64,000 nt of DNA, taken from NCBI RefSeq assembly GCF_035084215.1, contig NC_090359.1:15562001-15626000 (forward strand), in the 5' to 3' direction. Each line of letters opens with the position of its first letter. The first letter of the stretch is position 1. This DNA is from Heptranchias perlo (lineage: Eukaryota). The translations under genes and the position numbers were made by a program. The notes under the pieces were generated by a model that saw only the letters and a list, made by a program, of their open reading frames with translations, had not been told where the DNA came from and searched no databases. This document shows positions 4,430 through 43,805 of this stretch, in pieces.

Positions 4430-4559
4430 GCAAGAACAGTGCAAAGAAAGCCCTTTTATTTGATTCTTTCAAGGCAAAAATCTTGGACTCAAAGGTCAGA
4501 GTCGGAAAGCCGCTTTTCAATCACCAGTTCCGAGATTCTGGACAACACCCTTGTGAAGC

Positions 4560-6430: not shown

Positions 6431-6437
6431 CAAAGCT

Positions 6438-6620: not shown

Positions 6621-7142
6621 CTTCACCGCCTGGAGGTCATTTGGTAGGCGGACCGCCCGCCGTTTATACAAACCGCGGGAAATTCCCTGCCGTTCAATTC
6701 AACGGGAATCAAAATGGTCTTGGGCCGTAGCACAAAGTGGGTGGTAGCGGATTGGCCTGATGAAAGAGAGAGCTCTGATGAAAGGTCATCGACCTGAAAG
6801 GATGTTTCTCTCTCCACAGATGCTGCCTGACCTGCTGAGTGTTTCCCGCATTTTCTGTTTTTATTATTAATATAACCTGAGCTCTGTCGAGCGTTTGTTG
6901 TTCGATTCACTGATAAAGCTGGGAATTGAGGGGAAGCTGGTTCATGGCGAACCCCAGCTCTGAATCCCCCCGGCAGAGAGTTCAAGGAATGTTTAATATA
7001 AATGAGATTCAACGACAGCAGAAAATCTCTCCTTGATGGTCGGTCTCATTCTCCCGAAGTGAGGAATGAGCGGGAGAGGCAATTCCACCCGGGGTTAGAT
7101 TTTATTACAAGAGGATGACCCAAAATGTCAGTTTAATATGGA

Positions 7143-12220: not shown

Positions 12221-12424
12221 AAAGTTCCATCTGAACTGCCCCATCAAACACTCCCAGGACAGGGACAGCACGGGTTATATGCAGAATGAAGCTCCCTCCA
12301 CACTGTCAAATCAAACACTCACACGGCAGGTACAACACGGGTTAGATACACAGTAATGCTTCCTCTACTCTGTGCAGTTTATATCTCGCCTCAGATTTCA
12401 GATAAAAGGTTGGTTTCCTGGACA

Positions 12425-13010
12425 CTCTGCTGGTGTCTCTCTGTCTCTCTGCACTCAGTTACACCGCTCTCTACCTCCCTCTGCTGGTGTCTCTCTGTAT
12501 CTCTGTACCCAGTTTCACCGCTCTCTACCTCCCTCTGCTGGTGTCTCTCTGTATCTCTGTACTCAGTTACACCGCTCTCTACCTCCCTCTGCTGGTGTCT
12601 CTCTGTATCTCTGTGCTCAGTTACACCGCTCTCTACCTCCCTCTGCTGGTGTCTCTCTGTATCTCTGTACTCAGTTACACCTCTCTCTACCTCCCTCTGC
12701 TGGTGTCTCTCTGTCTCTCTGCACTCAGTTACACCTCTCTCTACCTCCCTCTGCTGGTGTCTCTCTGTATCTCTGTACCCAGTTTCACCGCTCTCTACCT
12801 CCCTCTGCTGGTGTCTCTCTGTATCTCTGTACTCAGTTACACGGCTCTCTACCTCCCTCTGCAGGTGTCTCTCTGTATCTCTGTACTCAGTTACACCGCT
12901 CTCTACCTCCCTCTGCTGGTGTCTCTCTGTATCTCTGTACTCAGTTGCACCGCTCTCTACCTCCCTCTGCTGGTGTCTCTCTGTATCTCTGTACTCAGTT
13001 GCACCGCTCA
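12425..13010. repeat. 54-bp minisatellite, about 11 copies
   Basis: Unit CTCTGCTGGTGTCTCTCTGTATCTCTGTACTCAGTTACACCGCTCTCTACCTCC. The ORF track shows 18-aa periodicity. Confidence 0.95.
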
Positions 13011-13186
13011 GTCTGTCCCCGCAGCTCCTTCGGGATTTTAATGATTTTGAAATTAAGTCTTTTTCCTCTGTGACTTGTGAAGTTTTGATCAGTGAAATGT
13101 TTGAGAAAGAGATGGAATGAGAGCTTTAAGTGTGGGACAGAAGTTGTTTAACGGAGAAGGCACACGATGCCTTAAATTGAGCAGTG

Positions 13187-13667: not shown

Positions 13668-15365
13668 TTTTTGTTGCTTTGTTCTCGTTCTTTGAGTCGA
13701 TTCTCGCATTTATTTCACTGAAATTTTAACCGGCACAGAAAGGTTGGGGAAGAAATAGACAGGCATCAAGAATGGGAAATATTGATAGTGTCTTTATTGA
13801 GTTTTTATTTCTCTTTTCTCTTCTGCCTTTTTCTCTGGAATTTGTCTCTCTCGGTGCCGGGAGACCATTTGATTTGAGGCATTTGTCCTGAACTGATGTC
13901 TTTTCCACATCTCGGGGCGGTCAGACCCGCTCTGTCTGTTACTACTTGTGACCATTGACGGGAACAGGCCGCGAGTTAAACGTTTATCAGCAAACCGACA
14001 GAGAGATAACACAACGGGAATCAAACCCATTGGGCATGATTTTATCGGGGAGGGGGGTCACGGGGGTCATGAGGTCATGGGTGGGTCAGTCATCGGGGGC
14101 ATCGGCGAGTCAGTCATCGGGGGTCGGGGGTCATCGCGGGGGTCGGAGATCATGGGGTTCGTAGCTCGTGCAGGGGTGTCGGAGATTTGGAGGGGGTCGG
14201 CCGATCGCCTGTGTGGGATCACGGCAGGTTGGCTTGTTGGGCCTGGAGGAAGCACTCCTGCTCCTCCGGGCCCACAAGCTGTGCGATAAAGGCATTTACC
14301 TGCTGTTTCGGGCCTTCTCGCCTCCTCTCATGTGGTGTGAAGGAGAAGGCCCAGGAATCCCGGCCCCCAAGAGTTTAAAATAAAAAAGCTGTAAAAATGG
14401 AGGCCCACATGCTAGCTACATAAAAACTCACACACAGACATATACACACAAACATACACACACCAATAACATGAAAGTAACACAGGACTACTTGACAAAC
14501 AGTATGCTGCAGACAGAGCGAAGCGATCCCACAAACAACGGATCAGATCAAAGCTCTGCAGTCCTGCCACACCCATTTGTGAATGATGGTGGATAATTAA
14601 ACAACTAATGGGAAGAGGCTCTATGAACATCCCCATCCTCAATGATGGTAAAGCAGTTTTCAGACGCTAACTTTTAATTTTATGTCTTCGCCGAGCTTCT
14701 TCCTAAACAAAAACTACAGAGCAAAAAAACAGGTGATTGTCACTTTCAGAATATTATTGTACGGAGACTATTTGAGGACTGGATGCAGAGCAATTGTGAT
14801 TTTTACCAACTGGTGGGTTCGGTGACAGATTCGAAATTCATTCATTTCCCCCGCGCAGGTTCAAATCTGACAGACTTCAGATCCCGTCATTCATCAACCT
14901 GTTTCATCTCTGCGTTTCAAACTTCAACAAGTTTCTTGTAGAATTAATAATTCTTAAGTGAATTAAAATTCCACAGCATTGAGTACCCCGAGTTTTATGC
15001 TCATTTTAATTGATCTGCAAGATTTCACGAAATCTACGACAGAAATGGAAAAAAAATGAGCCAAATTATCCATATTCTGACTCAGTATTTCTGAGTCAAT
15101 CCATGTGTATGTGTGTCTGTCTGTCTGTCTGTGTATGTGCCTCATATTTTCTATATTTTCCTGAGAAGATCTGTCTCTTTCTGTCTCACTCTCTCCCGCG
15201 TTACCCACATCATGATCCAACATGAGATGGAAAAGTGGTCGGTCATTCTTCTTTCAACAGTGGTCCGTGGAAAGTTAAACAAACTGTCATCAAATGAACA
15301 GTTCAAACAGATTCACTGAAACGTGAAGCATCTGTGGTGAATATACGGCAAATATTTGCATGAAT

Positions 15366-15437
15366 TCCTCGTTAGTATAGTGGTGAGCGTCCCCGCCTGT
15401 TACGCGGGAGACCGGGGTTCAATTCCCCGACGAGGAG
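15366..15437 (+). tRNA. tRNA with Asp body and GTT (Asn) anticodon
   Basis: TCCTCGTTAGTATAGTGGTGAGCGTCCCCGCCT-GTT-ACGCGGGAGACCGGGGTTCAATTCCCCGACGAGGAG. Confidence 0.85.
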
Positions 15438-16461
15438 GTTATTGCTGCTTTCGAAGCTTCACTTTCATTTATCTGAAATATTGGATGTTGAAAATACAAT
15501 GAAAAACTGACTCGGCCTTTCCCACTTCCACAAATTGATTTCACAGCGATTTTAAAAATCTGCTCTCTGCCTCACGCTTCAGCTCGATGTCAGAACCACA
15601 ATGATGGGCAAGAAATAAAATGCAGAATCGCGCTGTCACCAGCCCGAAACAGAGAGAGACAGGTCTCGGAACAGGCGCAGACATGAAAGATCTCACATAC
15701 AGCAATGAAAATGATGCATGTTACAGTGAATCTATTTTAACTACTTGTTTGATGACAATTTGTTTAACTTTCCACATGCCACTGTTGAAAGAAGACTTAC
15801 TTTCTATCTCTTTGTTAGTCAAGGTGCAGAGAAAAATTATTTGGGGAGCAGGGAAAAAGTGACAGATAGAAAGAAAGAGAGAGACACTCAGAAACGCATA
15901 CAACAAGTGAGACAGACATAGTCATATTCACACATACACAAACACACACATTCCTAGCTACATAAACACTCGCACACAGACATTGACACACACCAATAAC
16001 CTGAAAGTAACACTTGACAAACAGTGGAGCAGCATGCTGCAAACAGAGCTAAACGATCCCACAAACAACGGATCAGATCAAAGCTCTGCAGTCCTGCCAC
16101 ACCCATTTGTGAATGATGGTGGATAATTAAACAACTAATGGGAAGAGGCTCTATGAACATCCCCATCCTCAATGATGGTAAAGCCCAGCGTGTGAGTGCA
16201 AAGTTTTAGAAACCGTCTTCAGCCAGAAGTGCCGAGTGGATGATCCATCTCGGCCTCCTCCCGAAATCCCCACCATCACAGAAACCAGTCGAACATCGAG
16301 GTGAAGAGTGAAGCTGAGAGCAGATTTTAAAACCGTTGGAATGTCAGTGAAATTAAATTGGGGAAAGTGGGAAACTCCGAGTCAGTTTTACACTGGACAT
16401 TCCGCATCCAATAATGGAGATAAATGAGAGAAAAAGCTTTTCAAGACGGCGAAAGTTTAAT

Positions 16462-16533
16462 CTCCCCGTCGGTGAATTGAACCCCGGTCTCTCGCGTAAC
16501 AGGCGGGGACACTCACCACTATACTAACGAGGA
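16462..16533 (-). tRNA. tRNA with Asp body and GTT anticodon
   Basis: Reverse complement ...GAGTGTCCCCGCCT-GTT-ACGCGAGAGACCGGGGTTCAATTCACCGACGGGGAG. Confidence 0.85.
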
Positions 16534-17574
16534 ACTGCTGCATTGACTGTGCACTCATCCCAGATGGTGTTAGACATGCTTCATGTATCAGTGCATTTCT
16601 TTCAACTATTTATTTTAAGACAGTTTGTTTCATTTTCTCCGGGCCACTCTTGAAAGAACCTTTTACATTTCCATCTCTTTGTTAGACAACGAACAACTGA
16701 CTCTGTCTTTCTTTCGTTCTTTCTTTCTCTCTTATCGTGGTGAGTTGCCCCGCCTTCGTCCGGGGTTTAATTCCCCGACGGGGAGGAAGCATTTTTCAGA
16801 CGCCAACTTTTAATTTTATGTCTTCGCCGAGCTTCTTCCTAAACAAAAACTACAGAGCAAAAAAACAGGTGATTGTCACTTTCAGAATATTATTGTACGG
16901 AGACTATTTGAGGACTGGATGCAGAGCAATTGTGATTTTTGCTAACTGGTGATTAAGGTGACAGATTCGAAATTCATTCATTTCCCCCGCGCAGGTTCAA
17001 ATCTGACAGACTTCAGATCCCGTCATTCATCAACCCGTTTCATCTCTCCGTTTCAAAATTCAACAAGTTCCTTGTCGAATTAATAATTCTTAAGTGAATT
17101 TAAATTCCACGATGTTGAACATCGCGAGTTTTATGCTCATTTTAATTGATCTGCAAGATTTCACGAAATCTACGACAGAAATCGAACAAAAATCAGCCAA
17201 ATTATTCATGTTCTGTATCTCTGTATTTCTGAGTCACTCCATGTGTATGTGTGTCTGTTTCTGTGTGTCTGTGTCTGTTTGTCTGTGTATGTGCCTCATC
17301 GTTTCTATGTTTTCCTGCGTAGGTCTCTGTCTCTTTCTCTCTGAACAGAGTGAGACAGAAAACTGCTCACTATTCCAGGATCATCCTGGAATCCAAAGAT
17401 ATCCCCTGTATCTCTTCTCGACCACAAACCGTCTTCTTGCACCCCCTGCCTCTTCCACCCTCACCAAAAAAATTGCGAGGAGCTCCTGGACTATTCTGTC
17501 ACAAAGATTGAGACCATCCGTTCAGCTGCCGCTCCGGTGGAAAGCTCTCCACTGGATCGGCATACCGAGCACAA

Positions 17575-18625
17575 AAGAAGATGGAGTGGTTGTTGGAGGC
17601 CAATCATCTCAGCCCCAGGACATTGCTGCTGGAGTTCCTCAGGGCAGTGTCTTTGGCCCAACCATCTTCAGCTGCTTCATCAATGACCTTTCCCCCATCA
17701 TAAGGTCAGAAATGGGGATCTTTGCTGACGATTGCGCAGTGTTCAGTTCCATTCGCAACCCCACAGATAAGATGCAGTCAGTGCCCACATGCAGCAAGAC
17801 CTGGACAACATCCAGGCTTGGGCTGATAAGTGGCAAGTAACATTGACGCCAGACAATTGCCAGGCAATGACAATCTCCAACAAGAGAGAGTCTAACCACC
17901 TCCCCTTGACATTCAATGGCATTACCATCGCCGAATCCCCCACCATCAACATCCTGGGGGTCACCATTGACCAGAAACTTAACTGGACCAGCCATATAAA
18001 TACTGTGGCCACAGGAGTAGGCCAGAAGCTGGGTATTCTGTGGTGAGTGACCCACCTCTGGACTCCCCAAAGCCTTTCCACCATCTGCGAGGCACAAGTC
18101 AGGAGTGTGATGGAATACTCTCCACTTGCCTGGATGAGTGCAGCTCCAACAACATTCAAGAATCTCGACACCATCCAGGACAAAGTAGCCCACTTGATTG
18201 GCATCCCATCCACCACCCGAAACATTCACTCCCTTCACCACCGGCGCACAGTGGCTGCAGTGTGTACCATCCACAGGATGCACTGCAGCCACTCGCCAAG
18301 GCTTCTTCGACAGCACCTCCCAAACCCACGACCTCTAACAGCTAGAAGGACAAGAGCAGCAGGCACATGGGAACAACACCACCTGCACGTTCCCCTCCTC
18401 GTCACACACCATCCCGACTTGGAAATATATCACCGTTCCTTCAGCGTTGCTCAGACAAAAACCTGGAACTCCCTACCTAACAGCACATTGGGAGAACCGT
18501 CACCACACGGACTGCAACGGTTCAAGAAGGCCGCTCACCACCACCTTCTCAAGGGCAATTAGGGATGGGCAATAAATGGTGGCCTTGCCAGCGACGCCCA
18601 CATCCCATGAACGATTAAAAAAATA
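17575..18625 (+). mobile_element. CR1/L2-group LINE 3' fragment (paralog of 3290-4340; mirror at ~61735-62790)
   Basis: Same RT motifs and tail as 3290-4340. Confidence 0.85.
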
Positions 18626-18631
18626 CAATAA

Positions 18632-18713
18632 TGGCGCGGGTGGGATACAAAACCATGGGTGCAGAGCACAGTGGATTAGCAGTCCGTTCCCGTAACCACT
18701 CGGCCACCTTGTC
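18632..18713 (-). pseudogene. tRNA-Ser(GCT) pseudogene
   Basis: Paralog of 4348-4429. Confidence 0.75.
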
Positions 18714-18838
18714 GCATGAACAGTGCAAAGAAAGCCCTTTTATTTTGTAAAAGCAAAAGTCTTGGACTGAAAGGTCAGAGTAAGAAAGCCGCTTTTCAAT
18801 CACCAGTTCCCAGATTCTGAGGGCAGCAGAGGTGACAT

Positions 18839-18920
18839 GGTAGTGTGGCTGAGCGGTCGAAGGCGCTGGATTGAGGTCCCAGTCTCTGTCGGGGCGTGGG
18901 TTTAAATCCCACCGCTGCTA
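18839..18920 (+). pseudogene. tRNA-Leu pseudogene (anticodon reads GAG)
   Basis: Full-length Leu body with T-loop TTTAAAT (B-box damaged). Confidence 0.8.
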
Positions 18921-21900
18921 CAATTTGAGGTGCTGGTTGTTTTGGCCTCATCGCTCAGAATCCTTCTTTTCGAAGCAGCGCCATTGCTGTTGTTCAGGCA
19001 CAACTGCCACACCTGATGTCCCTCGTCGTGATCGTTTTGTGGTTAATACTCTGCGTTGTGGTCGCAGTCACCTCCGTGCGAATCCGAGTCTCCACAGAGT
19101 GTCATTTACCGATTTTCTCCATTGCCACATATGCTAAGAGAATGCAGCAAGAAATCAATCTTTCGCACAAGAAATAATATTATTTTGGTGAAACCTTTTA
19201 ATTCCGTCAAATCCCAGCACTCTCACATGCCTGTACTTGATGTTCCACTGTTCAAACCCGCCTCTTCTCCCAGCTTTTTCTTCCTTCCACAGTCAATAGG
19301 CCGCCTTGACTTTCCTCCTTCCATTTCATGGACACTTTCCTGCTCCATTGCCGACTCCAACATTCACTTTCACGATCGCACGCCTTTCAGTTTGTTCTGC
19401 TCCGACCGCTGTTTCTATTGGGCACATGTCCCATTCGCACCAATGTTCATTTGTGCCTTGAAACCAGTCGACACATTTCGATCTGCGTGACCGCTCGACA
19501 GACAAACACGACGAAAGCAGGGCTGGTCTCTGGAAAGACAGCCGCCCGAATGTTCACGAAATTTACTTGGGGAATCTTGTGATCCAGGGGATGGTAACTG
19601 AAGAACTGGTTTTTGTTTTGATGCTTGTTGGCTCTTTTCTCTCAGCAGTTGAGTTGCGTGAGTGACGGGCAGCGCGACAGAGCTGTGAATGGCGGTTGAA
19701 AGGTGCACATTTGGCAAGTTGGGGCGGTGCAGTAAGATCGGAAGTGTTCCGCCTTGATCTTAATAGTTCTGTTGAAGCGTGAGATTGAAGCGAGTCGAGC
19801 ATAAATGTAAAGAGCGCCTGTGGGGAAAAAGGAGCGATTACAGGCCATGAGCGGAAGGTCTTTCAAATTCTCGTGGCGCAGGACGCTGTTTGCGGAAACG
19901 GCAGATTTTAAACGCATGTGTCGGAAAGTAAAGTGCGATCTTGTGTGTGAGAAGAGCACAAGAAAGTTGTGCTTGAAGCTGCGCCCTTGAGGCAAGTTGC
20001 AGGTTGTCAGGAAAACTGCGATAGTGAAAGCTCAAAAATAAACCCAGAAACTGCTGGCAACACTCAGCAGGTCAGGTAGTATCTGTGGGGAGATATTCGC
20101 TTTACCGGGGGCGTCATTGTGCACTTTGATTAATATTAAAGACCTGTACAAGATGGACGGGTTGCACCTCAACAAGGCTGGGACCAATGTCCTCGTAGGG
20201 ATTTTACCCTTGACTTATCAGCGAGCGATACCGGCCTTTACTGGGCCTCAGCTATTTACAATGTATATCAGTGTAAAAAGATCTCTGACGCTAGCTGCGT
20301 GGAAAAGTGAGCTGTGAGGAGGACACAAAGTGTCTGCAAAGGGATACAGACAGGTTACGTGAGTGGACAAGGTGGCAGGTGGAGTATAATGGGGGGAAAT
20401 GTGTGGTTATTCACTTTGATAGGAAGAATAGAAAAACAAAATGTTTTAAAATGGTGAGCAACTATTGAATATTCATGTTCAGAGAGACTTGGGTGTCCTG
20501 GTGCAAGAAACACAGAAAGTTAACATGTTGGTACAGCAAGCAATTAGGAAGGCAAATGGCATGTTGGCCTTTATTGCAAGGGGGCTGGAATACAAGAGTA
20601 AGGAAGTCTTGTTGCAATTGTACGGGGCTTTGGTGAGACCACACCTGGAGTACTGTGTACAGTTTTGCTCTCCTTATCTAAGCAAGGATAAACTTGCCTG
20701 AGAGGCGGTGTAACAAAGCTTCACTTGGAGATGAGGGTGATGATGCCTTTCCTCGTGGACTCTGCCATGCTGTCTGCCAGAAGCATATCCCCGTACACTT
20801 CCAGTCGGTCTGGGTCTATCCAGTCCCACAGAGCCAACGGCAGTTTCATGACAGAGCGCCAGTACCGAATCTGCCCCGGTGACGAGGAGATGTCGACATA
20901 TGTCTTCACCGCCTGGAGGTCATTTGGTGGGCGGATCGCCCGCCGTTTATACAAACCGCGGGAATTTCCCTGCCGTTCATTTCAATGGGAATCAGAATGG
21001 TCTTGGGCTGTAGCACAAAGTGGGTGATAGCGGATAGGCCGCCCATCACACATCCCACCTGATATTCAGTTCCCTTGACTTCAGTGGGACTTGACTGAAT
21101 ATCAGGAGGAAGCTTCAGCGAGCGATACCGGCCGTCAGGCGGTACCGTCCAGGAAGAATTCCTGCCCCAGGTGGTTTTAATAACGAGCGGTCAATCTGCA
21201 AGGCCAGTTTTACACCAGATCACCAAGCAGAAAATGTACCCCAGAGAGTCTGTAATTATTCGTTCTGGGAACGGAAGTATATAGAAATTCAAGACAATAC
21301 ATTTTCTGAATTTGTACATTTCCTGTGACCAGAACCACGACCATCTCCTGTGGAACAAACGGATTTGTGTTAACATTGCAGAGAATCCATTGGAAATCCA
21401 CATTGTGAATTGAAACATTCAGCATTGTACAAATTCCGGATTGGTGTCGGTCATTCAAACATTACCACAGACACTCGCTTTATTTCATCTTATTCATCTC
21501 TCTCCCACCGTGAGATAAATATCTAACCTTCTGACACCAAAATCAACGAGCGACATATGTTTTCATCACGTTCATCGCGAAGAACTAATGGATCATCTTT
21601 AGTACAGCTGATTCAGACCTCTAAGAGGTCTCTTTGGGCCTCTGTGAATGATCAATAAATGGATTGAAAAGGGCAGGTCAGTTAAAATCTGATTTTTTAC
21701 CGTATTAACAAACAGCCAAGTGATTAGGAGATTCTAATTGCCAGTTTAGTGCAGACACCATGTGATGAGTTCAGCACTCACTCGAAAGCAAACTGAGAGC
21801 TGGTCTGTTTCTGGCTCTGTGATATTGGAAGGAGTGACTGGTTGTGTTTCAGGGGTCTGTGTTGTGCTGATGACTGGAGCAGAAAAAAACACCTTTGGGC

Positions 21901-22019
21901 TGAAATCTACACCTGATTCTTTGATGCCTCGTGTGTTTGGACCTTTTGAACATCTGCTTTGCTCAGACAGCCTGTCATTGTCCTTCTTACAGAAACAAAT
22001 ATATGGAAAATATACAATC

Positions 22020-22650
22020 CTAGAATCTCACAGCACAGGAGGCCATTCGACCCATCGTGCAGTGGCCAGCTCTTTGAAGGATGTAACCGATTACTCCCAT
22101 TCCCGTGCTCTTTACCCATAAACTTTGTAATTTTTACCTTTTCAAGTATTTATCCAATTTTCCTTTTAAAGTTACGATTGAATCGAGCTCCACCATCCTT
22201 TGAGGCAGTGCGTTCCAGATCATAACAATTCGCTGTGTAAAAAATCTCCTTATTTTCCTTCTAGTTCTTTTGCCAATCATCTTAAATCTGCGTCCGTTGG
22301 TTGCCGACCCTCCCGCCAGTGGGTGAAGTTTCTCCTTATTCACTCGATCAAAACCCCTCTTAATTTTGAACACGTGGATTACTTCTACCCTTAACCTTCA
22401 TTGCTCGAAGCAGAACAATCCCAGGTTCTCGAGTCTCTCCACACAACTAAACCCCATCCCTGGTATAATTCTGGGAAATCTCCTCTCCATCCTCTCCAAG
22501 ACCTTGACCTCCTTAATAAATTATAGTGCCCAGAATTGGACACAATACTTCAGATGAGGCCTGAACAATGATTTATAAACGTTTCACATAACTTCCTTGC
22601 TTTTGTGCTCTATTTCTCGATTATTAAGCCAAGGAACCGGATGCTGTTTT
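22020..22650 (-). mobile_element. CR1 LINE 3' region (mirror ~58000-58620)
   Basis: Encodes KIKRGFDRVN...FFTQRIVMIWNALP. Confidence 0.8.
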
Positions 22651-22669
22651 AACGGTTTCACCAACTTGT

Positions 22670-23170
22670 GCTGCCGCCCTCCGCTCTGATCCCATTGCCC
22701 GTCTCTCGGTCCTGTCCCCGGGCTCGGGGACTCTCGGCCGGTCCAGGGCCCTTTAAGAGGGACGCGCCACACTGCGCATGTGCGCCGTTTATTTAAATCA
22801 AACCGCGCGATTCAAAGGAAAAGTGACGTCAGTTTCCGTCACAATAAAAACCGCTCGTTCTCAACCGAAAAAACGGAAAGTTTGTCTCGCGACACAACAG
22901 GAAGCGGCCGCTGATCTGGCGGGTGATGTGCGCATGTGCGAACATTCTCCCAGAGTGCAGCGCGGCCCGTCTCACAGATGGGGCCTTTTCTCTGCCGCTC
23001 TGCATTGTGGGAGATTCGGCCGCCATTACGGGCCCGGGTCACCGAGTTCATCCAATCACAGGTGAAGCTTCCCGGATTGGTGGAACCGACAGAGTGCAGG
23101 TGGTCTGTGGAGCGAGAGAATCTCTGAGAAGAGGGGCAGCCAATTGGGGAAATCACAGGAGGTGGTGACC
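22670..23170. promoter_or_regulatory. CpG-island, housekeeping-type promoter (mirror 57480-57980)
   Basis: CpG-rich, with two TGCGCATGTGCG (NRF1-like), TGACGTCA (CRE), TCTCGCGACA, GCCGCCAT (YY1-like) and several CCAAT boxes. Confidence 0.65.
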
Positions 23171-25952
23171 GGTCATAAACCCAATCGGTGAATGACGGAT
23201 TGAACCAAGGAAAGGAATGAAGAAACTCGACTGGGACCTGTGGGAACAGGCGGACTAATAAATTTAACCCGTGTCCAGTTCAGGTCACCACATTACAGGA
23301 AAGATGGGATTGGACCAGAGAGGGTCCAGAGGAGATTTACAAGGATGGTCCAGGACTGGAGAATTTTAGCAATGAGGAAGGATTGGATCGGCTGGAGTTG
23401 TTTTCATTGGAACAGAGGAGGCTGAGGGGGGGGATTTAATTGAGGTGTATAAAATTATTGGGGGCCACGCGGACTGCGTCACTTCAAGGCGGCAACTCAC
23501 CCCCACCTTCTCAAAGGCAAATGGGATGGGCAATAAATGCTGCCCTTGCCAGTAACACCCACATCCCATGAACAAATAAAAAAAGAATATGAAGGTCCTA
23601 TATCCCTTAGCAGAGAGGCCAATAACCGGGGGGCATATATTTCAAATAATTGGAAGAATTCGAGGGGATCTGGGGATAATTTTTTTCACCCAGAGGGTGG
23701 TGTGGGTTTGAACCTGACTCGCTGAAAGGGTGGTGGAGGCAGAAACCGACATCGCTTTTTATAAGTACTTGGATGCGCACTTGAAGTCCCGTCACCTGCA
23801 AGGCTGCGGACCAAGACCAAGAGTGCGATTAGGCTGGATAGCTTTTTCAGCTGGCACAGACAATGGGCCGAATAGCCTCCTTCTGTGCTGTAAATTTCTA
23901 TGATTCTATAACCCCTAGGTTCAAATGTAACATGGCAAAAGATACATGTCTACGGTTCAAAAAAATATCTTTATAGGGAGGGGACAATGTAGAGTTCTGC
24001 CCGAAAATGTTGTTCACACAGACTCCATGAATTATTTTAAATGGGAATAATAGTGGAGGCACCTTGGAACAGAGGAACATTAAAGTGGACGAGGGGGCGA
24101 GAGGAAAGTCACCTGTTTCTGTCCTGTAAGATCCTAAGCTTCATTGAGAATGAATTCATGAAGCATTTCTACATGGTATTTTGTTGCAACATTTTAAAAA
24201 TACCCCAAAGTAGTTCTCCTGGTGTCCTGGCCAGTATATCCAGTTTGTAAAGCCTCCCTGAAATGTTTACATGTAAATCAGACAACAGTCAGAAGAGGGT
24301 AGGATGGCCCTACACTACACTACAATGTATTGTCATCTATTGGGTTTAATGTTTCCTAACATTATTTATCAATAGTGTGAGGAAGCTCAGAGTGAAAGTG
24401 AGGAGGGGCCGTCTGACTGCAGTTTCCACTGGAAGAAAAATCACCTTGTGTGTAGTGAGCAGAAATGAATTGCTATTGTTAAAAGTTCCCACTAACTTAT
24501 TGTGATTCTACTGCAACAGAACGAGCCTGGATCTCCTGCTATGTTTAAACACTAAACTTCAGTGATTATAGCTTAAGTAAAATATTACTATGATTTGATT
24601 TAAATGGAGAAGTGGTTTCCACCTGCCAAAGAATGTTGTCTGAAGCGAGGGTGTTTACTGCTAACAGCTCCCATCCTGTTTAATAGACCCCCTGAATGTC
24701 TGATTTACCAAAAAGAAAAACCCAGCTCAATAAAGATAAACAAATATGCTCTTATTAAATCTGAAGAACATTTTATGAACAAATTTCAGTATTTCAAAGG
24801 CAAGGTTGTCCCAGACATGGATTGTACCCAATTCACTGTAAAGTTATAAAGACACAGCCAGTTTAACGACCAGGGGACATAACCTCGAAGTTCGAATTAG
24901 GACTTCCAGGAATGAAGTTAAGAGACACTTCTACACACAACGAGTGGGAGAAGTTAGGAACACTCTTCCACAAATGGCAGTTGATGCTAGCTCAATTGTT
25001 AAATCTATTATCTCAGGTTAAAATTTTGTGAATCAAAAAGGTAAGGGATATGACTAAGGCAGGTATATGGAGTTATGTCACAGATCAACCATGATCTCAT
25101 TGAATGGTGGACCAGGCGAGAGGGGCTAAATGGCCAACTCCTGTTCCGATTGCCACCCCTCAAATATAGTGAATGATAAACAATAACGTAATCTGAAAAA
25201 TAGGACTAACCACTTACAATACAATCCTGAGGGCCTGCCGTGAGGGGAAGCTGAGGATAACGAAACTTCAGTCTGTGCTCACGAGAAGACAGGTGAAATT
25301 CAAATCCAACAGAGGTAAATCACAACCGCTGGGCTCCCCGTCCCTCGCACTCTGTGCCTGTACCCAATGAGCACAACATTGCCCCCTGTGAACATTAATC
25401 TTTACACTGGGCATTGGAAATTTACTTGGAGCCCCAGCCCAACAAAACAAAGATCTTCACATCAGGGGCAGAGATCTTCAATCTTGGAAGAGAGTTCAAG
25501 TCCACCCACTTTCAATCCTATTGGTGTTTGGACAATGAGCTCCAAATGGGAAAGTTTAGGAGTTTGGAGCCCATGTGCGGATTCGAGTGATCAATGGCCA
25601 CAGAGCACCAAGGGAATGATTGTGCAGTCAACCACCCGGCACCAGTACTTCAGGCCAGTCCCACTGTCCCTTCAGAGCTCATTGACCTGCACAATGAGGG
25701 CCTGGCAAGCCTTCACCCATTGCTGCAGCCATCCCTGGACTGGGCCTGGATACACTATTACCAGCCATTCTGCCACGAGTTACATGGACCCATTTCAACC
25801 CATTTCACTAACAGGAGGAACTGACGGAGGAGTGCAGTGTGTTACTAACACGGTATTGAGCACTCATTGTGTCGTTGACTGGAGACAGTGAGAAATGAGC
25901 AACCAGCCATGAGAAGATACAAGTGGTCACTGCTTTATTGGTCATTTGATAA

Positions 25953-28805
25953 CTAGTTAAACTGGGTTTGCTTGTGTTTCCTGTTCAGGAACAAGTCAAT
26001 CCAAGAAGCAGAGATCAGAGAGACAGCGCTCACAGTCAGGGCCAAGATCAGGACCACCTCAGACGCCACACCTATAAAGCAACAAGAAACCAATGGTTAG
26101 TGAAGGAAATACTGAGGGGAAAATGGAAACTAGCAGTCGGCCAACTCACCACCTGGAGACCTCTCCTGCATCCTTTGCTCAACATCATTAAGGGGCTCAG
26201 TTGCCAGGTCTGTCACATGAGGATCCAGAATGACCAAGGGTCCAAGTGAGGCCTCACCCTCCCACTTCAACTCAGCATCACTCTCTGCAATATCAAACAT
26301 TCCAGTTAGAGGGTAAAGGGTGACCTCCAACAATCAAGAGGATCAATGTCCTACCAGGTCCAGATACAAGATCCCTCCTTCCTCTGGAATCAACGAGGAA
26401 ATCCCTTGTGGCACTGCAGTTGCCCAGATGACAACAGGCACACACGTCATTGGTCGATTCTTCCAATGGGGTCGAGCTCAACCAGAGAATCAGTTCATCA
26501 ACCAGGTTGTCCATCACCCTTTAATCAACACATCCCTGAACGAGAGAGGGAACTTACATATTCTGGAAAGTACAAGCCTTGTTCATGGAATCTCTCCGAT
26601 CCACTGCAGCAACTTTCAGGTGACAGGTGATGAAAATCTGAGGGACACATTCAATACAAGTTGTTATTTAGTGACCTCCTCCCAACATGGGGAACCCAAT
26701 GTTTGGCTTCCTCTTACCAAGGAACGGTCATCTCCAAAGAAGCGGAACGCATCCAGATCAAACTGGAGTTCGTCCAGCTCACGTTCACCTCTTGGCAACA
26801 CAAAGGTTGAAAAGGAGTCCTCAGCTTTGCTGTCCAGGAGGCAACTGAAGAAAGATTTAAAAAGGGACAAAGTGAATTAAGTGAACCGATTGAGACAGAA
26901 CCAGCTGGAGAAAGCAGAGAGCTCCTTACCCATGGGAGTCAATGATGTTGTATCTTGGGGTGGAATCCTTGTCTGGGCTCAATGTCGCTGCACAGCTGTC
27001 AATGTAGAGATTCAAGGGCATGTGGTTGGTCATTGAAACAGAGGCCTCAATGTGAATGAGGTCACCCAGGTAGTAGACAGTCGAGGTGCGCTCTGAAAGC
27101 CAGTCATCTGAAGTACAAGAGGACAAGGGTTGGAGACAGTGGGTGTAACTCCCAGTGGGAGACGACAGAAAAGCACTCGCCATCCACCCATCACATACCG
27201 TTCATAAGACGCAGTGAGAATGACAGAAGTCCTTCTCCAGACTTGGTAGAGCGGAATGGGATCCAGGTGGGCTTGATAGGGTCACTGCTCACATTGCCCT
27301 TCCTGAAAGGACACTACAGTAATTTCAGGACAACTTCAGAGAACTGCACCTGCTGTAGACCTTATTTGCAATAGAGTAAAGATTCTTACCTAAAATAGTG
27401 GCACTCAATGGGAATGACTGCTCCATTAGTTCTCACAATAACAGATCCACGAGCATTTGGGGTGTGGTTCAGGTGGGTGGTGTCGACCAGGAAATCGCCA
27501 GCCATCTGAAAGACATCAGGTTAAGGAATGAAGAGCTGGTCTCATTGAACAAAAGCTATTTCTGGTCATTTTCCTACCCTGTTAAGCAGCAGTTTAAGGG
27601 GTTTCAGCTGCTCCTCAATGACACATGATTGAAGTAGCTCCACCATTGGGAGAAGTTGCCTGGAGCAGCCTCTGTTACTCTGCTCAGTCCACCTTCTATT
27701 ACAGGGGACTTCAGGCCTGCAGTCAGAAACCCCTGAAATGATTGGCACTGCCAGATTTGATGAGCATTCTTTCGCATATAGATTAGAGCTTTCACCTTAA
27801 GGGGCTCAAGTTACCCCTGATATGGAGCACAAAACACAACATCACTTTTAAATCTCATCTGTGTCCGTGGAATCAATGGTATTGGCAGGTGTAACAACCA
27901 AAAGTGGAGTTCCCCTTTAATACACTGTATCCCAATTATTATTCCACTTGTTTCATCTTTCAAGGGAAGTCTCAACAGGAACTTCCACACTGAACATTCA
28001 TTGACCACAAGTTGAGGCAACAGGCCTGAATATCCACAGGAAGGAACGGAAAAGATAAATCAATTGAGGCACAAAAGAACAGAGTGGTTTGGAGAAATGC
28101 AGGTGAAGGTTCAAGGTCAATAGAATTGAATCTCAGAGTTAGAGAGCAGCAATGACCCATTTAAGAAAGATGCAGTCCCTCAGTGACAAGTCGAAGTTCT
28201 TTTTAAATATAAAGCGAAGATTGACATGTCAACATAAAGAAGTAGTTTCACACAGGGTGATACTTCACAGTGGGCAAAAATTTATACACAGATTTCATTC
28301 AGGGATCTCCTCAGTGGCTGGAGTTTCCCCCGATGTTAATGAGTTCAGAGTGGGCAGTAATCTACACAGTGAAATTGGAACAAGAGTTGAGGAATCACAT
28401 TAACTGCAATCTGCTGCCACATTCATGGAGCCCATAGTCAAAGAGGACAGTGTGGTTCTGAGAGTAGATCCCAGTTGGCCGACAACCTGCTGTCCCCAGG
28501 GTCAGGTCAGCAGCTTTAATCAGGTGCCTGGTTCTAAATAAATCCATGTCTACCCTCACCAGCAGGTTCTGCTCTCCACACTGCACCATCACAGTCTGCA
28601 GTGGAGACAGACTTCTCCCCTCAGACACACTGAAATGGGAACCAAAGGGAGGCACAGGGAGAGGGACTCTCTGGGGCACAGGGGTGGGTTTTACTCTTCT
28701 CCATGGAAATCTCTGGCCTACAAACTGTTGTCAAATATCAGAGCAACAAACCGCTCCAACTAACACCAGCACCGGGAACAAACCTCTCACTACAAAATCC
28801 CCCAT
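25953..28805 (-). pseudogene. zp3: zona pellucida glycoprotein 3 (ZP3/ZPC)-like gene, 9 exons, disabled
   Basis: Exons 28805-28404, 27505-27390, 27302-27199, 27107-26930, 26844-26718, 26637-26558, 26476-26355, 26284-26150, 26071-25953. Encodes a signal peptide, ZP motifs (VQC, LHECGS, PIECHY, PTWIPF, FITCHLK, CACC), an RGRR furin site and a TM helix. AATAAA lies at 25934-25939. Lesions are TGA at codon 25 (28731-28733) and intron-1 donor GT>TT. Confidence 0.9.
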
Positions 28806-28849
28806 GATACCAAACAACTCAACTATCACTTTACCCACCAACCAGCACC

Positions 28850-29145
28850 TTTTTTTTTTTCTTTTTTTTTCTGGCCCCCCTTTTATAAGAAGGGGGGGGT
28901 GTAGGGTGTGCTTAAGTACTAAAAACCAAATAAAACGAAACCAGGCATCAAATTAAAATTTTATTTTCCTCGTCCAGGATGCACTCCAGCACCTGCGGTG
29001 CCCACCGGTCGCGGAAAGCCTCAAGCGTACCGGCAGACACCGCGTGCTCCATCTCCAGGGCCACCCGGGCGCGGAACAACCCGCGAAAGAGAGGCAGACA
29101 GGCCGAGCGACCGCCCCCACGGACCGCGAGCATCCTGGACCTGGG
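28850..29145 (-). mobile_element. Tx1-clade LINE short 3' end abutting the ZP3 5' UTR
   Basis: Encodes ...RARVALEMEHAVSAGTLEAFRDRWAPQ..ECILDEENKILI*, followed by a 3' hairpin with TATAAAA (28881-28887) and an A-rich tail. Confidence 0.85.
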
Positions 29146-29167
29146 GATATCCAGGATGCACTCCAGT

Positions 29168-31027
29168 TTCGTCTAGTTTTCTGGTGGGTCAGTGGCGGGT
29201 GGACTCCCTGCCGGAGGAGCTCAGGCCTTTCGCCTGGAGTACCACGCACCTCCGGTACCTGGGAGTCTACCTCGGCCCTGCCGAGGAAGCCTGGCCGGCG
29301 AACTGGGAAGAGCTGGAGGCCAAGGTCGCCGCTCGCCTGGCGCGCTGGACAGGACTGCTCCGAGTGTTATCCTACAGGGGTCGAGTGCTGGTCATAAACC
29401 AGCTGGTGGCCGCCATGTTGTGGTACCGGTTGGTCACTTTGACCCCACCCCCCGAGTTTGTCACCAAGATTCAGAGGAAGTTCGTCGACTTCTTCTGGGC
29501 CAAAGGGATGCACTGGGTCGCTGCCGCGGTCCTGAGTCTCCCGCTTAGGGAGGGCGGTCAGGGGCTGGTGTGCGTCCGCACCCAGGTGGCAACTTTCCGC
29601 CTTCGGACGCTGCGGCGATACCTGTACGTTGAGCGTCCTCTTAGATGGCGTGCGCTGGCGACGTATTTTTTCCGCCAGCTGCACGGCCTGAACTACGACA
29701 CGCAGCTCCTGTTCGTCTCGCTGGTGGGCGGCCGCACGTCTTTGCAGGAGCTGCCTGTCTTTTACCAGGATCTGCTCAGGGTCTGGAACATGGTCGCCTC
29801 CGGTCGGAGCTCTCGCCCGTCAGGGGTAGCGGCCGTCCTGCAGGAGCCGCTGCTCGGGAATCCGTTCCTCTGCGATATCGGCTTCGGCCACTCGCGGCTG
29901 TCGGGGCGGAGGGCCGTGGCCGGTCGCGTAACCAGAGTCAGGGACGTCCTGGATGGCGGTGGGTCGGGTTGGTTGGAGCCGTGGGCGCTCGCCGCACGGA
30001 TGTCCTCGTGGCGTGCCGGGGACGCGGCCATCGCCATCCAGGCGTTGAAATCGGCGCTCGGCCCTGACTCCACTCGGGATGTGGAGGCGGCTCAGGCGTG
30101 CGGAGCCAACCCGTCCGACCTGACCCCCGTTCGGACGGAGTTCCTCCTCGGCGCCAAACCCCGGCACCTCCCTCGGGGGGCCGCGCCTCACAACTTGAGC
30201 CGTCTCTCGGAAATTCCCTCCGTGCCGTTTCTCACCGCGCGGAGGGATTTCCTGTACGGGCTGCTCCTGCACACCATCCACTTCCTCGCCCTCGTCTCTC
30301 GGCCGGACACGCCCTGGCGTAACATCCTGCCGTCCGGCGGAGACGGGGGTTCCCAGTGGGGGGCTCTCTACTCAGGGATCCTCCCGTGTTCCATCGGGGA
30401 TCTGGGCTGGAGGGTGGTGCACGGAGCAGTCGCGTGCAACCGGCGGTTACGCCATTTCACGGACACCCAGGCCGCTTGTGATTTCTGCGGCCTGGAGGAG
30501 TCCGTGTTTCATTTGTTCACGGGGTGTGGGAGACTGCAGCCCCGGTTTGATTATTTGAAGGGGCTGCTCCTCAAGTTCTGGCTGCATTTCAGTCCCACGC
30601 TCCTGATCTTTGGCCGCCCGGTGAGGAGGGGGGCGGGCAGGTCGGTGGACGTTCTCGTGGGCCTGCTCCTGGGCCTGTCCAAGGTGGCCATCCACAGGTC
30701 TAGGATGATCGTGGTCCGTGGGGGCGGTCGCTCGGCCTGTCTGCCTCTCTTCAGCGGAATGCTCCGCGCCCGGGTGGCCCTGGAGATGGAGCACGCGGTG
30801 TCTGCCGGTACGCTTGAGGCTTTCCACGACCGGTGGGCACCGCAGGGGCTGGAGTGCATCCTGGACGAGGATAATAAAATTTTTATTTGAACACTTGGTT
30901 TTGGTTTGTTTGGTTTTAGTATTTAAGCACACCCCACACCCCTCTTCTTATAAAAGAGGGGCCTAACAAAATTAAAAAAAAAGGAAAAAAAAAAATCTGA
31001 AAGTGAAAAAAAAAGAAAAAAAAAAAT
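29168..31027 (+). mobile_element. Tx1-clade LINE, 5'-truncated, open ORF2 C-terminus (RT thumb and Zn finger)
   Basis: Encodes LRYLGVYL, LSYRGRVLVINQL, LPLREGGQGL and CDFCGLEESVFHLFTGC, with a stop at 30890, then a hairpin and poly(A). Confidence 0.9.
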
Positions 31028-31457
31028 CAGAAAGTTTCTCTTTGTTTCAATCTCTTGGAATCATAACTTTGAATTATTTGATAATAATTTGATATTTTCA
31101 CTGAAGTGGCTTTTCATAATCTGGTCAAGTTTATTACTTGTTGGTGATTGTGATGTTGAGACAATATTCAAAGCAATCAAGTTGTCTTGAGTGAATTTGC
31201 AAACCACCATTGGTCAGAGAAATGGAAATTCCATCCCATGGATGGTGTGAATCGTCCCCAGTTCTAATATAGAGAATGGGTGTGTCTGAGGATTGGCAGC
31301 ATGGGGGCATCAACTGGGCAAAGCATTGTGGGATGTGTCATTTTTAGTTTTGATTCTCATGAAATGTTGTTTGGTAAAATTCAGGATATTCAGCGAGAAT
31401 GAGAGGCAGTGAAGATTACTGAATGCAATGTCACCCACACAAACATCTCCATTTGTG

Positions 31458-33614: not shown

Positions 33615-36172
<2,558 letters not shown>

Positions 36173-36246
36173 CTTTAAATTAACTTTAACAAAACTAAAC
36201 AACTCTATTGAAGCAAGCAACTGAAAAACAGCCACCCAGAGCTCCA

Positions 36247-36415
36247 TATTTATACTGCTGGTTAATCCTGGGCGTGGCAGCCTAGATGATGAGTGACAGT
36301 TGGCAATACCCAATCAGAAATTACATCCTCTCTCAGAACACCAATCAAGAAAAGGGAGGAGGGGAGATGACACCCAGAGCCAGTCAGAACTTTGAAGGAG
36401 GAGCATCATTGGCTG
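36247..36415 (-). promoter_or_regulatory. ferritin A promoter
   Basis: TATAAATA at 36247-36254, GGCGTGGC and several CCAAT boxes. The same motifs are conserved upstream of copy C (43680-43800). Confidence 0.7.
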
Positions 36416-36469
36416 ACAATTCAATAAAGATCCAATTGCTTTGACTTTCCTCAAACTGTAAAATCTGTT

Positions 36470-36645
36470 TCCGTGACCGGTGGGCACCGCAGGGACTGGA
36501 GTGCATCCTGGATCGATGTAATAAAATTATAATTTAACACTTATTTTGGGTTTATTGATTTACTGCACATAAACACAACCAACCCCCCCTCCCCTTCTTA
36601 TAAAAGGGGGGCCTAAAACACAAAAAAAGGAAAAGCAAAAAAACC
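36470..36645 (+). mobile_element. Tx1-family 3' end upstream of ferritin A (further fragment 36890-37015 -)
   Basis: CGGTGGGCACCGCAGGGACTGGAGTGCATCCTGGA...CCCCTTCTTATAAAAGGGGGGCC followed by an A-tail. Confidence 0.85.
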
Positions 36646-39011
36646 ATGGCTGCTCTTCCATCCCACACTCCAAAGAAAAAAAAATCTGATCGTGACCATA
36701 TTCTTGACCATAATCGACCTTTCTTTGATGGACCAATAAGGGAGACTCTGGGTTGCCCCAGGGTCACCAAACATAAACCATCACAAGTGGCCCTCTCAGG
36801 GCACCACTAATATTGGATGGTCCAATCAAACTGAAAAGAGACCAAAATAAGCATCAAGTGCCACCAAAAACAACAGGATACTTTCCCAATTAAATCAGGA
36901 TTCTATTATTGATGTCTGAAAGACAGTCGATACCCTGCGGTGCCCAGCGGTCGCGGAAGGCATCAAGCGTAACGGTGGACACCACATGCTCCCTCTCCGG
37001 GGCCACCCGGGCACTTGACCATAATGGACCAAATTGTCAATTGGTGGATCTGCCCCCATCCCATCGGTTATGGTCACTGATCGTGACGGTTCAAAGATCC
37101 AGAACCACAGGTTTAATTGTTGTTTGCGGGTCAGTGTCTTTGAATAATTCTGGATGGATCCGTGAGTTGGTTATTTGGCAAGTAGCGGCGGGTTTGAGGC
37201 AACATCCAAACAGATCAGAGCCTGTGAACAGCAACCAACAGCGAGTCAGGCGAATGGAAAGTGGGTGTGATGAACGTGTTAAACACAAGTCCTTCAATAC
37301 TCCATCAATTCTAGGGTCAGTGAGCATCTGTACACACATCGGCTGGAAAGTGAAGGGGGCCACGGCATGTTGAGTTCTTGTTTTGTCATCATGACATTTT
37401 ACAAACAATAAAATGCAGAGCACTCCACGGGGAAGAGACTGTGGACCATTGACTGAAGGGATTTGGGGGGTGGGGGGTGGTTTGGTGTTGGGAGGGATTG
37501 CGGTGAGAGGCAAACACTGTGTGTAGTGTTGGTTGTATATACAGTGAGCGACAGTGGTGAACAGACTATCTGGTATTTCCTGGGTTTGGTAATCCCTTGT
37601 TTCAATGATTAATCTCTTGTACTTTTTGGACAGTCAAACACCAAGCGGAAAGAGTCGAGTGGTGAATTTTCTCATTAGAAAGGGGAGTTACTGATATTTC
37701 CCTAAATCCGGTCAGGGAAGGATGGGGCTCCGTGGACATTTTGTGTTCCAGATCACATCAGAATACTGTCGGATCAACAACAAACAGCAGGCTAAAAAAA
37801 AATCAAAGGTGGAACCTAGTGAAGGAAAGATGAAGCAACGAAAAGTGGGGTCGATGGACTGATCTGATCATATGATCCCTGTGTGAGAATAACCTGAACA
37901 TCACTGGTGCAAACTCAGTTAAAGCTTTAAACAGACCAAGTAGTTGGTGGTTTAGCCTTTAATTAGATGGCTCTATTCTCCAACTCTTCAGTAGACTTAC
38001 AAGTGGCAGTTTTGGCAATTGGGATCTAGTGTTATTTGGTTCCAGGCCAAATAAGATTACACAAAGATTGTATTCGCAAGGAGAGGGGAATGGGGCAAGA
38101 ACTGTTTAATGAAACAGAATCCAGCAAGGGAAACTTAGAGGGGCTCTTAGATTTGCAACAGCAAATGGAAGTATTTTAGAGGCTATGGGGTCCAGGATAT
38201 AAAAGGTGCATGAGGTGAACAGAGACTGGAAAATAAAAATTGAGATTGAAACAAATAGCAGGAGCTGGACCAAAGTTCTGCACAGGAAGAAAAAGATGGG
38301 CTGAAGAGAAGGAGGAAAGAGCCAGGTAACCCGAGCAGGAACAATTGGAGATTTGGTCTTACTTTGCTCCAGGATTTTTGTAACTACTTAAATTTGAATA
38401 CCTGCTTCAGGGAACACTTCCCTCATGTCCTACAATGGACAAGTCAGCAGCAATGTGTGGGGTTGTTTATTCAGAAGGTTAACTACTGTAATCACCATTG
38501 ATGCCCACATCCCATGAACGAATAGTAATAAAAAAATGCACACTCTCCAAAAGGGATTCAAGCCTATGTGGAGGAAGTGGTCTTACTGTAATCAGATTAC
38601 AGTTTAATCTCTACTACAGAACACCAAATATTGAAAGCTGTTAGGTACAAATCTAATTTTGGCCTGATGGCCATCCTAGGCTGCTACAAAACCAAATTAA
38701 GCCTTCTGGAGGGGAAGGGGTTAAAACATCCATGTGCCCAAACAAATCAGATTTGATCACGGTGACAACCTATTTCTTAGAATTTTTTTTTGTTTGACGC
38801 AAGGCCACGTGCATTGGTGTTAGAATGTGCTCAATTACTGAAGAAAAGGAACCAGTTCAACATCAAAATGTTTTATTTCAGCTGCCAGAACACTCAACTA
38901 CAATGTTTGGAAGTTAATCTTAGACTTTGAATTCCATTCCCAGTTCAGAGAGATGGCAACATAAAACTTCAATACACAAGTTGAATATCTGCAACATGGA
39001 CAACAGTCCAG

Positions 39012-42067
<3,056 letters not shown>

Positions 42068-42894
42068 CCAAACTACTTTTTTTTTAATAGACCAGCAACT
42101 GACTATAAACAATATGAACATAAGGACGTCAAACCGAAGCTGCTGTATTTATTCTTTCAGACCCAACCCATCTTTAACTACAGGATGTGACATCACTGAT
42201 GATAAATGTTTGGCAGCCAATCAAATAGCTGCTTTCTCATCACACGAACGGAAAAAAACCCTAACCCCACCCCCTGAAAAAAGTGGGGGGGGGGGGCCTA
42301 AAAACACCAAAAAAAAAGGAAAAACACACAAAAACCCAATATCTTCAGGATCCTCCTTTCATTCAATCACTTCTCTTGTTCTATTTCATAAGTTTCTTCA
42401 CTTCATTTTAACCTGCTGTTTGTTTTTATTCTGTGACCTGTCTGTTTTTTAACCTCTCTTTCTAATGATTTCTCCCCCTGCTCCTCATTTGTTCTGTTCT
42501 TTTCTCCCCATCTCCCCCATTCCCCAGAATCCCACCCATTCCCATGTCCCCTTGTAACACTGTGCAGTCTGCAGCCTGTGTGTCCATGTCCCTGTGCTTC
42601 AGTCAGCCTGAGTCACTCTCTTCAATAAAAAATATTCCTTCCACTACGAGCATGCTATCCAGTCCCTCGGTGCCATTGTCTCAATGTTACTCTTTTAATT
42701 GAACAAGAAGGAGACACTGAGTTTCTCTTTTTTTCTAATGGGTCTTTGAGCCCCAGTGTCAGGAACCCCGAAAACCTATTCAAGTGCTGTAAGAATTTTT
42801 TCTTGTGGCACACCCAATCATAGCAATGAAACCGAATTAAACCAAAATGTCACTGTCGTAATCAACTATCCACTCCAGTCCCCGGTCTCAAACA

Positions 42895-43610
42895 TAACGG
42901 CAGACACTCCGTGCTCCTTCTCCAGGGCCACCCGAGCACGGAGAATGCTGCGGAAGAGAGACAGACAGTCGGAGCGACCGCCCCCCCATAGGCCATGTCT
43001 AGCCTGGACCTGTAGATGGCCACCTTGGACAGGCCCAGGACCAGACCCACGAGGACTTCAGTCCCACGCTCCTGATCTTTGGCCACCCGTTGAGGGGAGT
43101 GGGGAGTTTGGGGGGGACGCAGGCAAGTCGGAGGACATTCTCATGGGTCTGGCCCTAGGCCTGTCCAAAGTGGTCATCTACAGGTCCAGGCTCGACCCGG
43201 CCCATGGGGACGGTCGCTCCGACCGTCTGCCTCTCTTCCGCAGCATTCTTCGCACCGCGATGGCCCTGGAGAGGGAGCACGCGGTGTCTGCCGGTACGTT
43301 TGAGGCTTTCCGCGACGGATGGGCACCGCAGGGATTGGAGTGCATCCTGGACCGAGATAATAAAATTATAATTTGACACTTATTTTTTTTTTGGATTTAC
43401 TGCACATGAACACACCCTAACCCCCCCTTCTTATAAAAGGGGGGCCTAAAACACACAAAAAAAGCTGACTGCCCATAAAAAAAAATTAAAATTATTATTT
43501 GACTCTGTTATCATTTAGTTTTTGGATTTTTAAAAAAAAAATAAAGTTACATCCTGAACCTCCCTCCCTCAATCTCATAAAAGGGGATCGAAACATACAA
43601 AAAAAGTCAA
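42895..43610. mobile_element. stack of Tx1-family 3' fragments between ferritins B and C
   Basis: A minus piece at ~42895-43060, a plus piece at ~43060-43465 with hairpin and tail, and a further diverged 3' tail at ~43480-43610. Confidence 0.8.
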
Positions 43611-43805
43611 CCTGATTCAAAACAAATCTACTTAATTGAAAAAAAAATGTTCTGATTGGCCTTAAATACAATCTCGACTACGCCTCTTTCTTGATTGGTG
43701 TCCTCAGTGGGCGTAGAGCTCTGAATGGCTAGTGTGAGTTTTTACTCATCATCGGGAATGCCACGCCTTGTATTACAGGCAGGCTGTCCCCAGACATATC
43801 AATAG

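Follow-up and report, generated by a model that had tools for sequence, protein, structure and literature searches.

LINEs (long interspersed elements) of the Tx1 clade are known for their targets: Tx1L inserts into Tx1D, Keno into U2, Kibi and Koshi into microsatellites, and Tx1-Mar into Mariner-N4_AMi (Kojima 2015, PMC4494074). Drosophila heat-shock promoters are hot spots for P-element insertion (Walser et al. 2006, PMC1592238), and tandem ZP3 arrays with pseudogenes have been described in catfish (PMC13704971). Here we describe a 64,000-nt stretch of the genome of the sevengill shark Heptranchias perlo (NC_090359.1, positions 15,562,001 to 15,626,000 of the forward strand; hereafter the window), in which 3' fragments of a Tx1-like LINE stand upstream of two ZP3-like egg-coat pseudogenes and of the ferritin genes between them. 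We consider it probable that the lineage inserted recurrently near promoters, with promoter loss or disruption in dead paralogs.

The element resembles Tx1-clade LINEs in its open reading frame 2 (ORF2) homology, A-rich tail, 5' truncation, insertion with or without target duplication and concentration in multi-copy DNA; unlike the RNA genes, microsatellites and transposons that serve those LINEs as targets, the sites here lie upstream of protein-coding multi-copy genes and have no visible common sequence (PMC4494074). As in the fly case, there would be repeated insertion into the proximal promoters of strongly expressed, germline-accessible genes, although that case concerns a DNA transposon across populations whereas ours concerns a shark LINE and is inferred from one window (PMC1592238). 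The catfish arrays likewise hold amplified ZP3-like genes in mixed orientation with dead members; their pseudogene share is small, in contrast to the mostly truncated H. perlo models, and the main text contains neither the word promoter nor the word transposon (PMC13704971). Our search found no literature describing Tx1 insertion at the promoters of shark ZP3 or ferritin genes, with most subscription journals, Repbase reports and supplements lying outside it. Promoters derived from long terminal repeats (LTRs) were reportedly found in mouse oocytes by Peaston in 2004 and Franke in 2017. As there, a retroelement with a TATA-like motif stands beside an oocyte gene start; unlike those LTRs, which are said to supply a full promoter, the LINE 3' end here comes without a 5' promoter and is a candidate promoter only.

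The two ZP3-like genes belong to an inverted segmental duplication within the window (20574-30995 against 49664-60076, 97.7% identity), each arm of which holds one nine-exon gene read outward. The element and exon 1 differ by 3-5% between the arms and the sequence downstream by 1.5%. The best of 70 protein matches was a ZP3-like model of H. perlo itself (90% on the exon-1 piece), exon 1 gave a Pfam ZP-N match (E 8.6e-7), and that H. perlo ZP3-like protein matched chicken ZP3 3nk3 (E 3e-98). Using signal peptide, ZP-N plus ZP-C module, cleavage site and transmembrane end as the marks of the ZP3 (ZPC) egg-coat family, and with all nine exons readable up to a hydrophobic end, we assign the window genes to this family by sequence similarity. 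The genes and the element copies beside them are as follows.

25953 to 28805, minus strand: ZP3-like pseudogene of the left arm, nine exons; stop TGA in codon 25, GT to TT at the exon-1 donor, conserved Tyr to Asp in ZP-N
28806 to 28849, minus strand (right arm, 51819-51862): host leader, 44 nt, between the A-tail and the ZP3 ATG
28850 to 29148, minus strand: short Tx1-like 3' fragment facing ZP3, with ORF2 end, 3' untranslated region (UTR), hairpin and A-rich tail
29149 to 29180, no strand: head-to-head junction, 32 nt, with 0/32 differences between arms and a 17-nt extra copy of ORF2-end sequence
29181 to 30995, plus strand: Tx1-like long copy, 1.8 kb, 5'-truncated, facing away from ZP3
49101 to 49650, plus strand: older Tx1-like 3' fragment adjoining the right composite
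49664 to 51817, no single strand: second copy of the two-part composite, in the right arm, with its long piece on the minus and its short piece on the plus strand
51863 to 54697, plus strand: ZP3-like pseudogene of the right arm; stop TGA in codon 29, exon 2 with an in-frame deletion of 18 nt, the same Tyr to Asp change

Neither copy combines an open frame with intact splice sites, and both are pseudogenes. The premature stop in exon 1 stands at a different codon in each copy (25 left, 29 right). The Tyr to Asp change is common to both arms, and the two solved full ZP3 modules that we aligned (chicken ZP3 and a second one) both have Tyr there; the 18-nt deletion of the right arm recurs in another model, P0028. 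The species has at least 62 ZP3-like models in five clusters; our counts cover the 39 of the 62 that were readable, with a signal peptide in 8 and full length in 3, and part of the truncation may be annotation error. Intact paralogs are exemplified by those encoding XP_067833722.1 and XP_067827924.1. The Asp/Ser sub-lineage to which the Tyr to Asp change belongs comprises 6 of the 39, none with a signal peptide. In a protein tree of 26 rows (2 window copies, 19 H. perlo models with both anchor motifs and a length of 280 aa or more, and 5 outgroups) the window copies received no supported placement. Two database proteins labelled Salmonella (P0006 and P0166) are shark-type ZP3 sequences and are probably mislabelled or contaminant records.

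Upstream of the start codon, the sequence-only reading of this locus had counted about 45 nt of host sequence before the A-tail of the element, and we measured 44 nt in both arms. We regard this leader as native because the proteins of other sharks start seven codons earlier, within it: this is so in 15 of 58 models of other sharks, the last 21 nt of the leader encode the residues with which the protein begins in catsharks and bamboo sharks, and the earlier start position reads ATA here. From that position to the A-tail there are 23 nt. Since ZP3 leaders are short, the A-tail would lie about where ZP3 transcription should begin.

The short fragment of about 300 nt consists of 66 codons of the ORF2 C-terminus (about 200 nt, with the stop at about 28948-28950), about 73 nt of 3' UTR and an A-rich tail of about 25 nt. 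The earlier description of 28805-29170 as 3' UTR throughout therefore has to be abandoned, since 28850-29170 holds tail, UTR, the ORF2 end and part of the junction. The roughly 2 kb of LINE reported upstream of the TATAAAA is present, as about 2.15 kb before other sequence resumes, but in two pieces of opposite orientation and not as one element. The long copy keeps a frame open across 575 codons in both arms and diverges neutrally between them, with a ratio of nonsynonymous to synonymous divergence (dN/dS) of 0.98; it has neither ORF1 nor a 5' promoter, and no LINE 5' promoter is present. Within 2.15 kb of ZP3 we found no host upstream sequence. No target-site duplication surrounds the composite (the longest common word is 5 nt in the left arm, and there is none in the right), and the far flanks of the two arms' composites differ until 31149/49087. 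Because the duplication is missing and the far flanks differ, the native proximal ZP3 sequence was probably deleted. Of the proposal that the native promoter was displaced or replaced, displacement or loss is thus supported; exaptation is not shown.

Twin priming was considered as the origin of the inverted piece and rejected: that piece is another 3' end, which carries a tail of its own and shows 13/269 shared differences from the long copies. An 82-nt stretch of the left long copy (30756-30837) is identical to part of the right short copy (51576-51657), which suggests gene conversion between element copies. The tail of the left long copy (30996-31030) holds, between A-runs, two versions of a 10-nt word that differ by one change, as after repeated priming.

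By ORF2 similarity we provisionally place the element in the Tx1 clade. One of 11 ORF2 protein matches is a named Tx1 ORF2 (E 1.4e-57, 46% over 23% of the query) and the remaining 10 are unnamed or generically named. A zf-RVT match in the element's ORF2 fell under the Pfam cut-off, and an atlas search returned only zf-RVT clusters, with recognition below threshold. In every element copy of the window the truncation lies 3' of most of the reverse-transcriptase domain.

The TATAAAA reported 76 nt (left) and 84 nt (right) upstream of the ATG was confirmed: it lies at 28887-28881 in the left arm and starts at 51773 in the right, with its last base at those distances from the A of the ATG. The sequence TATAAAAG fits the TATAWAAR consensus. 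In 7/7 exact-loop copies, including those that face away from genes, TATAAAA forms the loop of a terminal hairpin, and the hairpin of the left long copy shows one compensatory base pair. Because folding of the whole UTR was no better than shuffles in 8/8 cases (z from 0.74 to -1.3), the case for the hairpin is its recurrence together with this one pair. The presence of TATAAAA is no evidence of a recruited promoter, because the motif occurs in every hairpin-bearing copy whatever the neighbour; most likely it is part of the element's own RNA end signal. Stem-loops at the 3' terminus are known from the ends of stringent-type LINEs and short interspersed elements, which the present element resembles in having a conserved hairpin with a compensatory change just before the tail and from which it differs in that the loop is a consensus TATA and recognition by a protein is only putative (PMC3747384). 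When metagenome contigs were scanned for the hairpin motif, 2 loci emerged, and these match the window over only 19-32 nt at the motif. The position 30 nt beyond the TATA falls at about 28857 (left) and 51803 (right), inside the A-tail and 52-60 nt before the ATG, and by geometry only transcription would start within the A-tail.

Three ferritin genes lie between the divergent ZP3 copies (33615-45941), two of them intact (97% identical) and one a pseudogene, and their three promoters are alignable, with CCAAT/TATA. In the ovary of vertebrates, transcripts of the ferritin heavy chain are abundant (PMC1488847). These genes and the Tx1-like pieces near them are as follows.

33615 to 36172, minus strand: ferritin gene 1, intact 176-codon frame, own TATA at 36254
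36468 to 36643 and 36846 to 37057: Tx1-like fragments 296 nt and 674 nt upstream of ferritin 1
39012 to 42067, minus strand: ferritin gene 2, intact 175-codon frame
42258 to 42332: Tx1-like tail 191 nt upstream of ferritin 2
42887 to 43640, no strand: three more Tx1-like 3' fragments, within the spacer that separates the divergent ferritins 2 and 3
43815 to 44056, plus strand: 242-nt Tx1-like 3' fragment, sense, with a 13-nt target duplication (43806, 44055)
44116 to 45941, plus strand: ferritin pseudogene 3, GTG at the start, frameshifts and deletions

All 11 Tx1-like fragments, with the duplicated composite counted once, fall within 28850-51817 and none in 1-28849. Nine of the 11 have their near end at most 900 nt upstream of a ZP3 or ferritin start; the tenth adjoins the right composite, and the eleventh is a weak, old intronic match (41098-41238). 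At the four independent starts the nearest fragment is 44 nt (ZP3) and 296, 191 and 54 nt (ferritins 1-3) away. Four starts each with a fragment within 300 nt were obtained in 18 of 1,000,000 random placements, and in 369 of 1,000,000 when placement was restricted to 25900-49660. The genes hit within 55 nt, namely the ZP3 pair and ferritin 3, are dead, and the ferritins hit at 191 and 296 nt are intact. In ferritin 3 the insert sits just downstream of the position that aligns with the ferritin 1 TATA, and read-through from this sense insertion (43806-44067) could give a LINE-ferritin chimeric RNA. In two places (43461/43482 and 49650/49664), only a few bases separate the tail of a young copy from the reverse-complemented 3' UTR end of an older Tx1-like lineage; these tail-to-tail pairs possibly mark a reused site.

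The account that we favour is one in which a Tx1-like LINE lineage would insert repeatedly into core or proximal promoters of the multi-copy ZP3/ferritin array. Before the two ZP3 copies separated, a sense 3' fragment would have inserted 44 nt before the ATG, about at the short-leader start, and would have been joined head-to-head to a second truncated copy with loss of the native proximal promoter; the unit would then have been duplicated into both arms, both copies being pseudogenes. The redundancy of a large paralog array would let such hits persist and be copied, and the germline accessibility of active promoters may be the cause of the preference; accessibility plus redundancy is the simplest mechanism because no common target sequence is visible, and a like argument has been made for the heat-shock promoters of flies (PMC1592238). 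The anatomy of the composite, the lesions and the clustering are direct observations in this window. As to the order of events, the insertion may have killed ZP3 or landed in an already decaying gene. On present evidence the locus consists of two pseudogenes whose promoter is displaced.

Contigs from 4 of 22 listed runs were placed on 26900-29250 and bear on other copies of the insertion, with the qualification that contig depth is no copy number. In organism B, a 213-nt contig (X5, record 23) covers leader, tail and UTR (28824-29040) fully at depth 93, where collapsed ZP3 has a depth of 94-103 and other ZP3 contigs of that run 14-45. It carries only 26 host-side letters against a bridge threshold of 31, and its UTR letters are of the long-copy type, so that it may stem from an insertion of its own, reflect the ancestral state or have been joined across the A-tail. 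In organism A (X1), depth is 880-1493 over the UTR, 986 over collapsed ZP3 and 41,000-61,000 over the ORF2 end, and window-type UTR letters occur at two diagnostic sites at a depth of up to 585-740. Loose contig ends at 28843-28880 were dropped from the analysis; others lie at 29148 and 29181, that is, on both sides of the junction. Spliced ZP3 joints are present in runs X6 and X10, whose RNA type was guessed; X10 has low depth upstream of 28875, to which we give no weight. The sequence-only reading had proposed that insertion confined to dead paralogs would indicate disruption: both window genes are dead, as that would have it, but on the contig data intact paralogs may carry it too.

Several points count against recurrent insertion at promoters followed by gene death. 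The clustering test was post hoc and used one window, it counted nested and possibly single-event pieces as independent, and it included one weak fragment (tblastn E 0.003); furthermore, the 3' flanks of 8 aligned copies share no target motif by eye. The contigs hint that the tail/leader junction is multi-copy, perhaps beyond the dead sub-lineage. In addition, dN/dS between the two ZP3 copies is 0.39 (p=0.03 against synonymous sites) and no stop is common to both arms, which fits some function after insertion. As a sign of selection the ratio is weakened because nonsynonymous divergence (14/1039) equals intron divergence (24/1469, p=0.62), and selection on the ZP3 copies after duplication is established in neither direction. 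In one alternative there is no promoter preference, fragments having piled up by nesting and under relaxed selection in a redundant, decaying array, with nearness to starts incidental. It gains from the fragments that adjoin other fragments at 43461/43482 and 49650/49664; from ferritin 3, which has 93.5% identity and 4 gaps against ferritin 1 where its insert matches the long copies at 96.5-97.5%, and which may therefore have been dead before the element arrived; and from ZP3 models P0106 and P0039 (Heptranchias and Heterodontus), which end in antisense Tx1-end sequence, so that the family also occurs inside or downstream of ZP3 genes. Nesting nevertheless leaves unexplained why four separate starts have hits within 300 nt, why 1-28849 is free of fragments, why the sole intronic match is weak and old, and why two of the hit genes are intact, and we regard the pile-up as rather unlikely.

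The points on function and copy number would instead suit exaptation, in which the tail supplied a TATA at the old start, the fragment was amplified with the array, intact paralogs are transcribed from it and the window copies died later of other causes. The consensus fit of the TATA and the spacing of its +30 position from the ATG agree with this, as do the private stops, the ratio of 0.39 and the depths of record 23 and X1; at the codon-25 stop position all contig depth in the four runs carries the Trp-codon letter. One of 154 shark ZP3 models, P0132 of Heterodontus, begins with sense residues resembling the Tx1 ORF2 end. That model is a prediction that gives no distance, and it scores E 1e-4 against P0071 in a 12-protein set but E 7.8 pairwise against the ORF2 end of the window itself. 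A search among 40-128-residue proteins with the peptide read in frame through tail and leader gave no candidate. Record 23 falls short of the bridge threshold and has the long-type UTR, its depth says nothing of copy number, and only 3 of the 39 H. perlo models are full length. In mouse Zp promoters the FIGLA E-boxes are found in the first 200 bp (PMC1906760), yet here no E-box within about 200 bp is common to both arms: a CANNTG at -190 is private to the left pseudogene, and the nearest common E-box stands at -600/-610. On balance we think exaptation unlikely. That the Trp-codon letter fills the codon-25 position could also mean that the stops or the composite are sequencing or assembly errors. 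Contigs drop minority variants, however, and the Asp variant of 6/39 models is equally invisible in them; the junction occurs in two arms that differ by 1.5-5% elsewhere, and the lesions are substitutions and an in-frame deletion that is also found in P0028. An artefact is extremely improbable.

A bolder proposal would have the Tx1 lineage home into the core promoters of amplified oocyte genes, with the hairpin-loop TATA replacing the displaced one. Most of the ZP3 array, including intact expressed copies, would then be driven by a core promoter from the LINE tail, and other orders of sharks might have parallel insertions; this we consider decidedly unlikely. If the preference is real, Tx1 LINEs would have protein-coding promoters as a further kind of target, and there would be a mechanism for the heavy loss of genes in the egg-coat arrays of sharks. 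Should the hairpin TATA be used by intact copies, a single short motif would act both as the RNA end signal and as the core promoter that replaces the old one.

Elsewhere in the window, a CpG island at 22500-23100 and 57500-58000 is without a Tx1-like insert, and its motifs are presumably those typical of a housekeeping promoter. A Pfam scan of 61 other window frames found no gene for this island and returned two reverse-transcriptase fragments and repeat-driven matches. A further, direct duplication (1-6757 against 15238-21040, 92-94% identity, about 14.3-15.2 kb apart) contains tRNA-like sequences and a reverse-transcriptase fragment. At 12317-13126 there is a tandem repeat with a 54-nt unit and long open frames on both strands.

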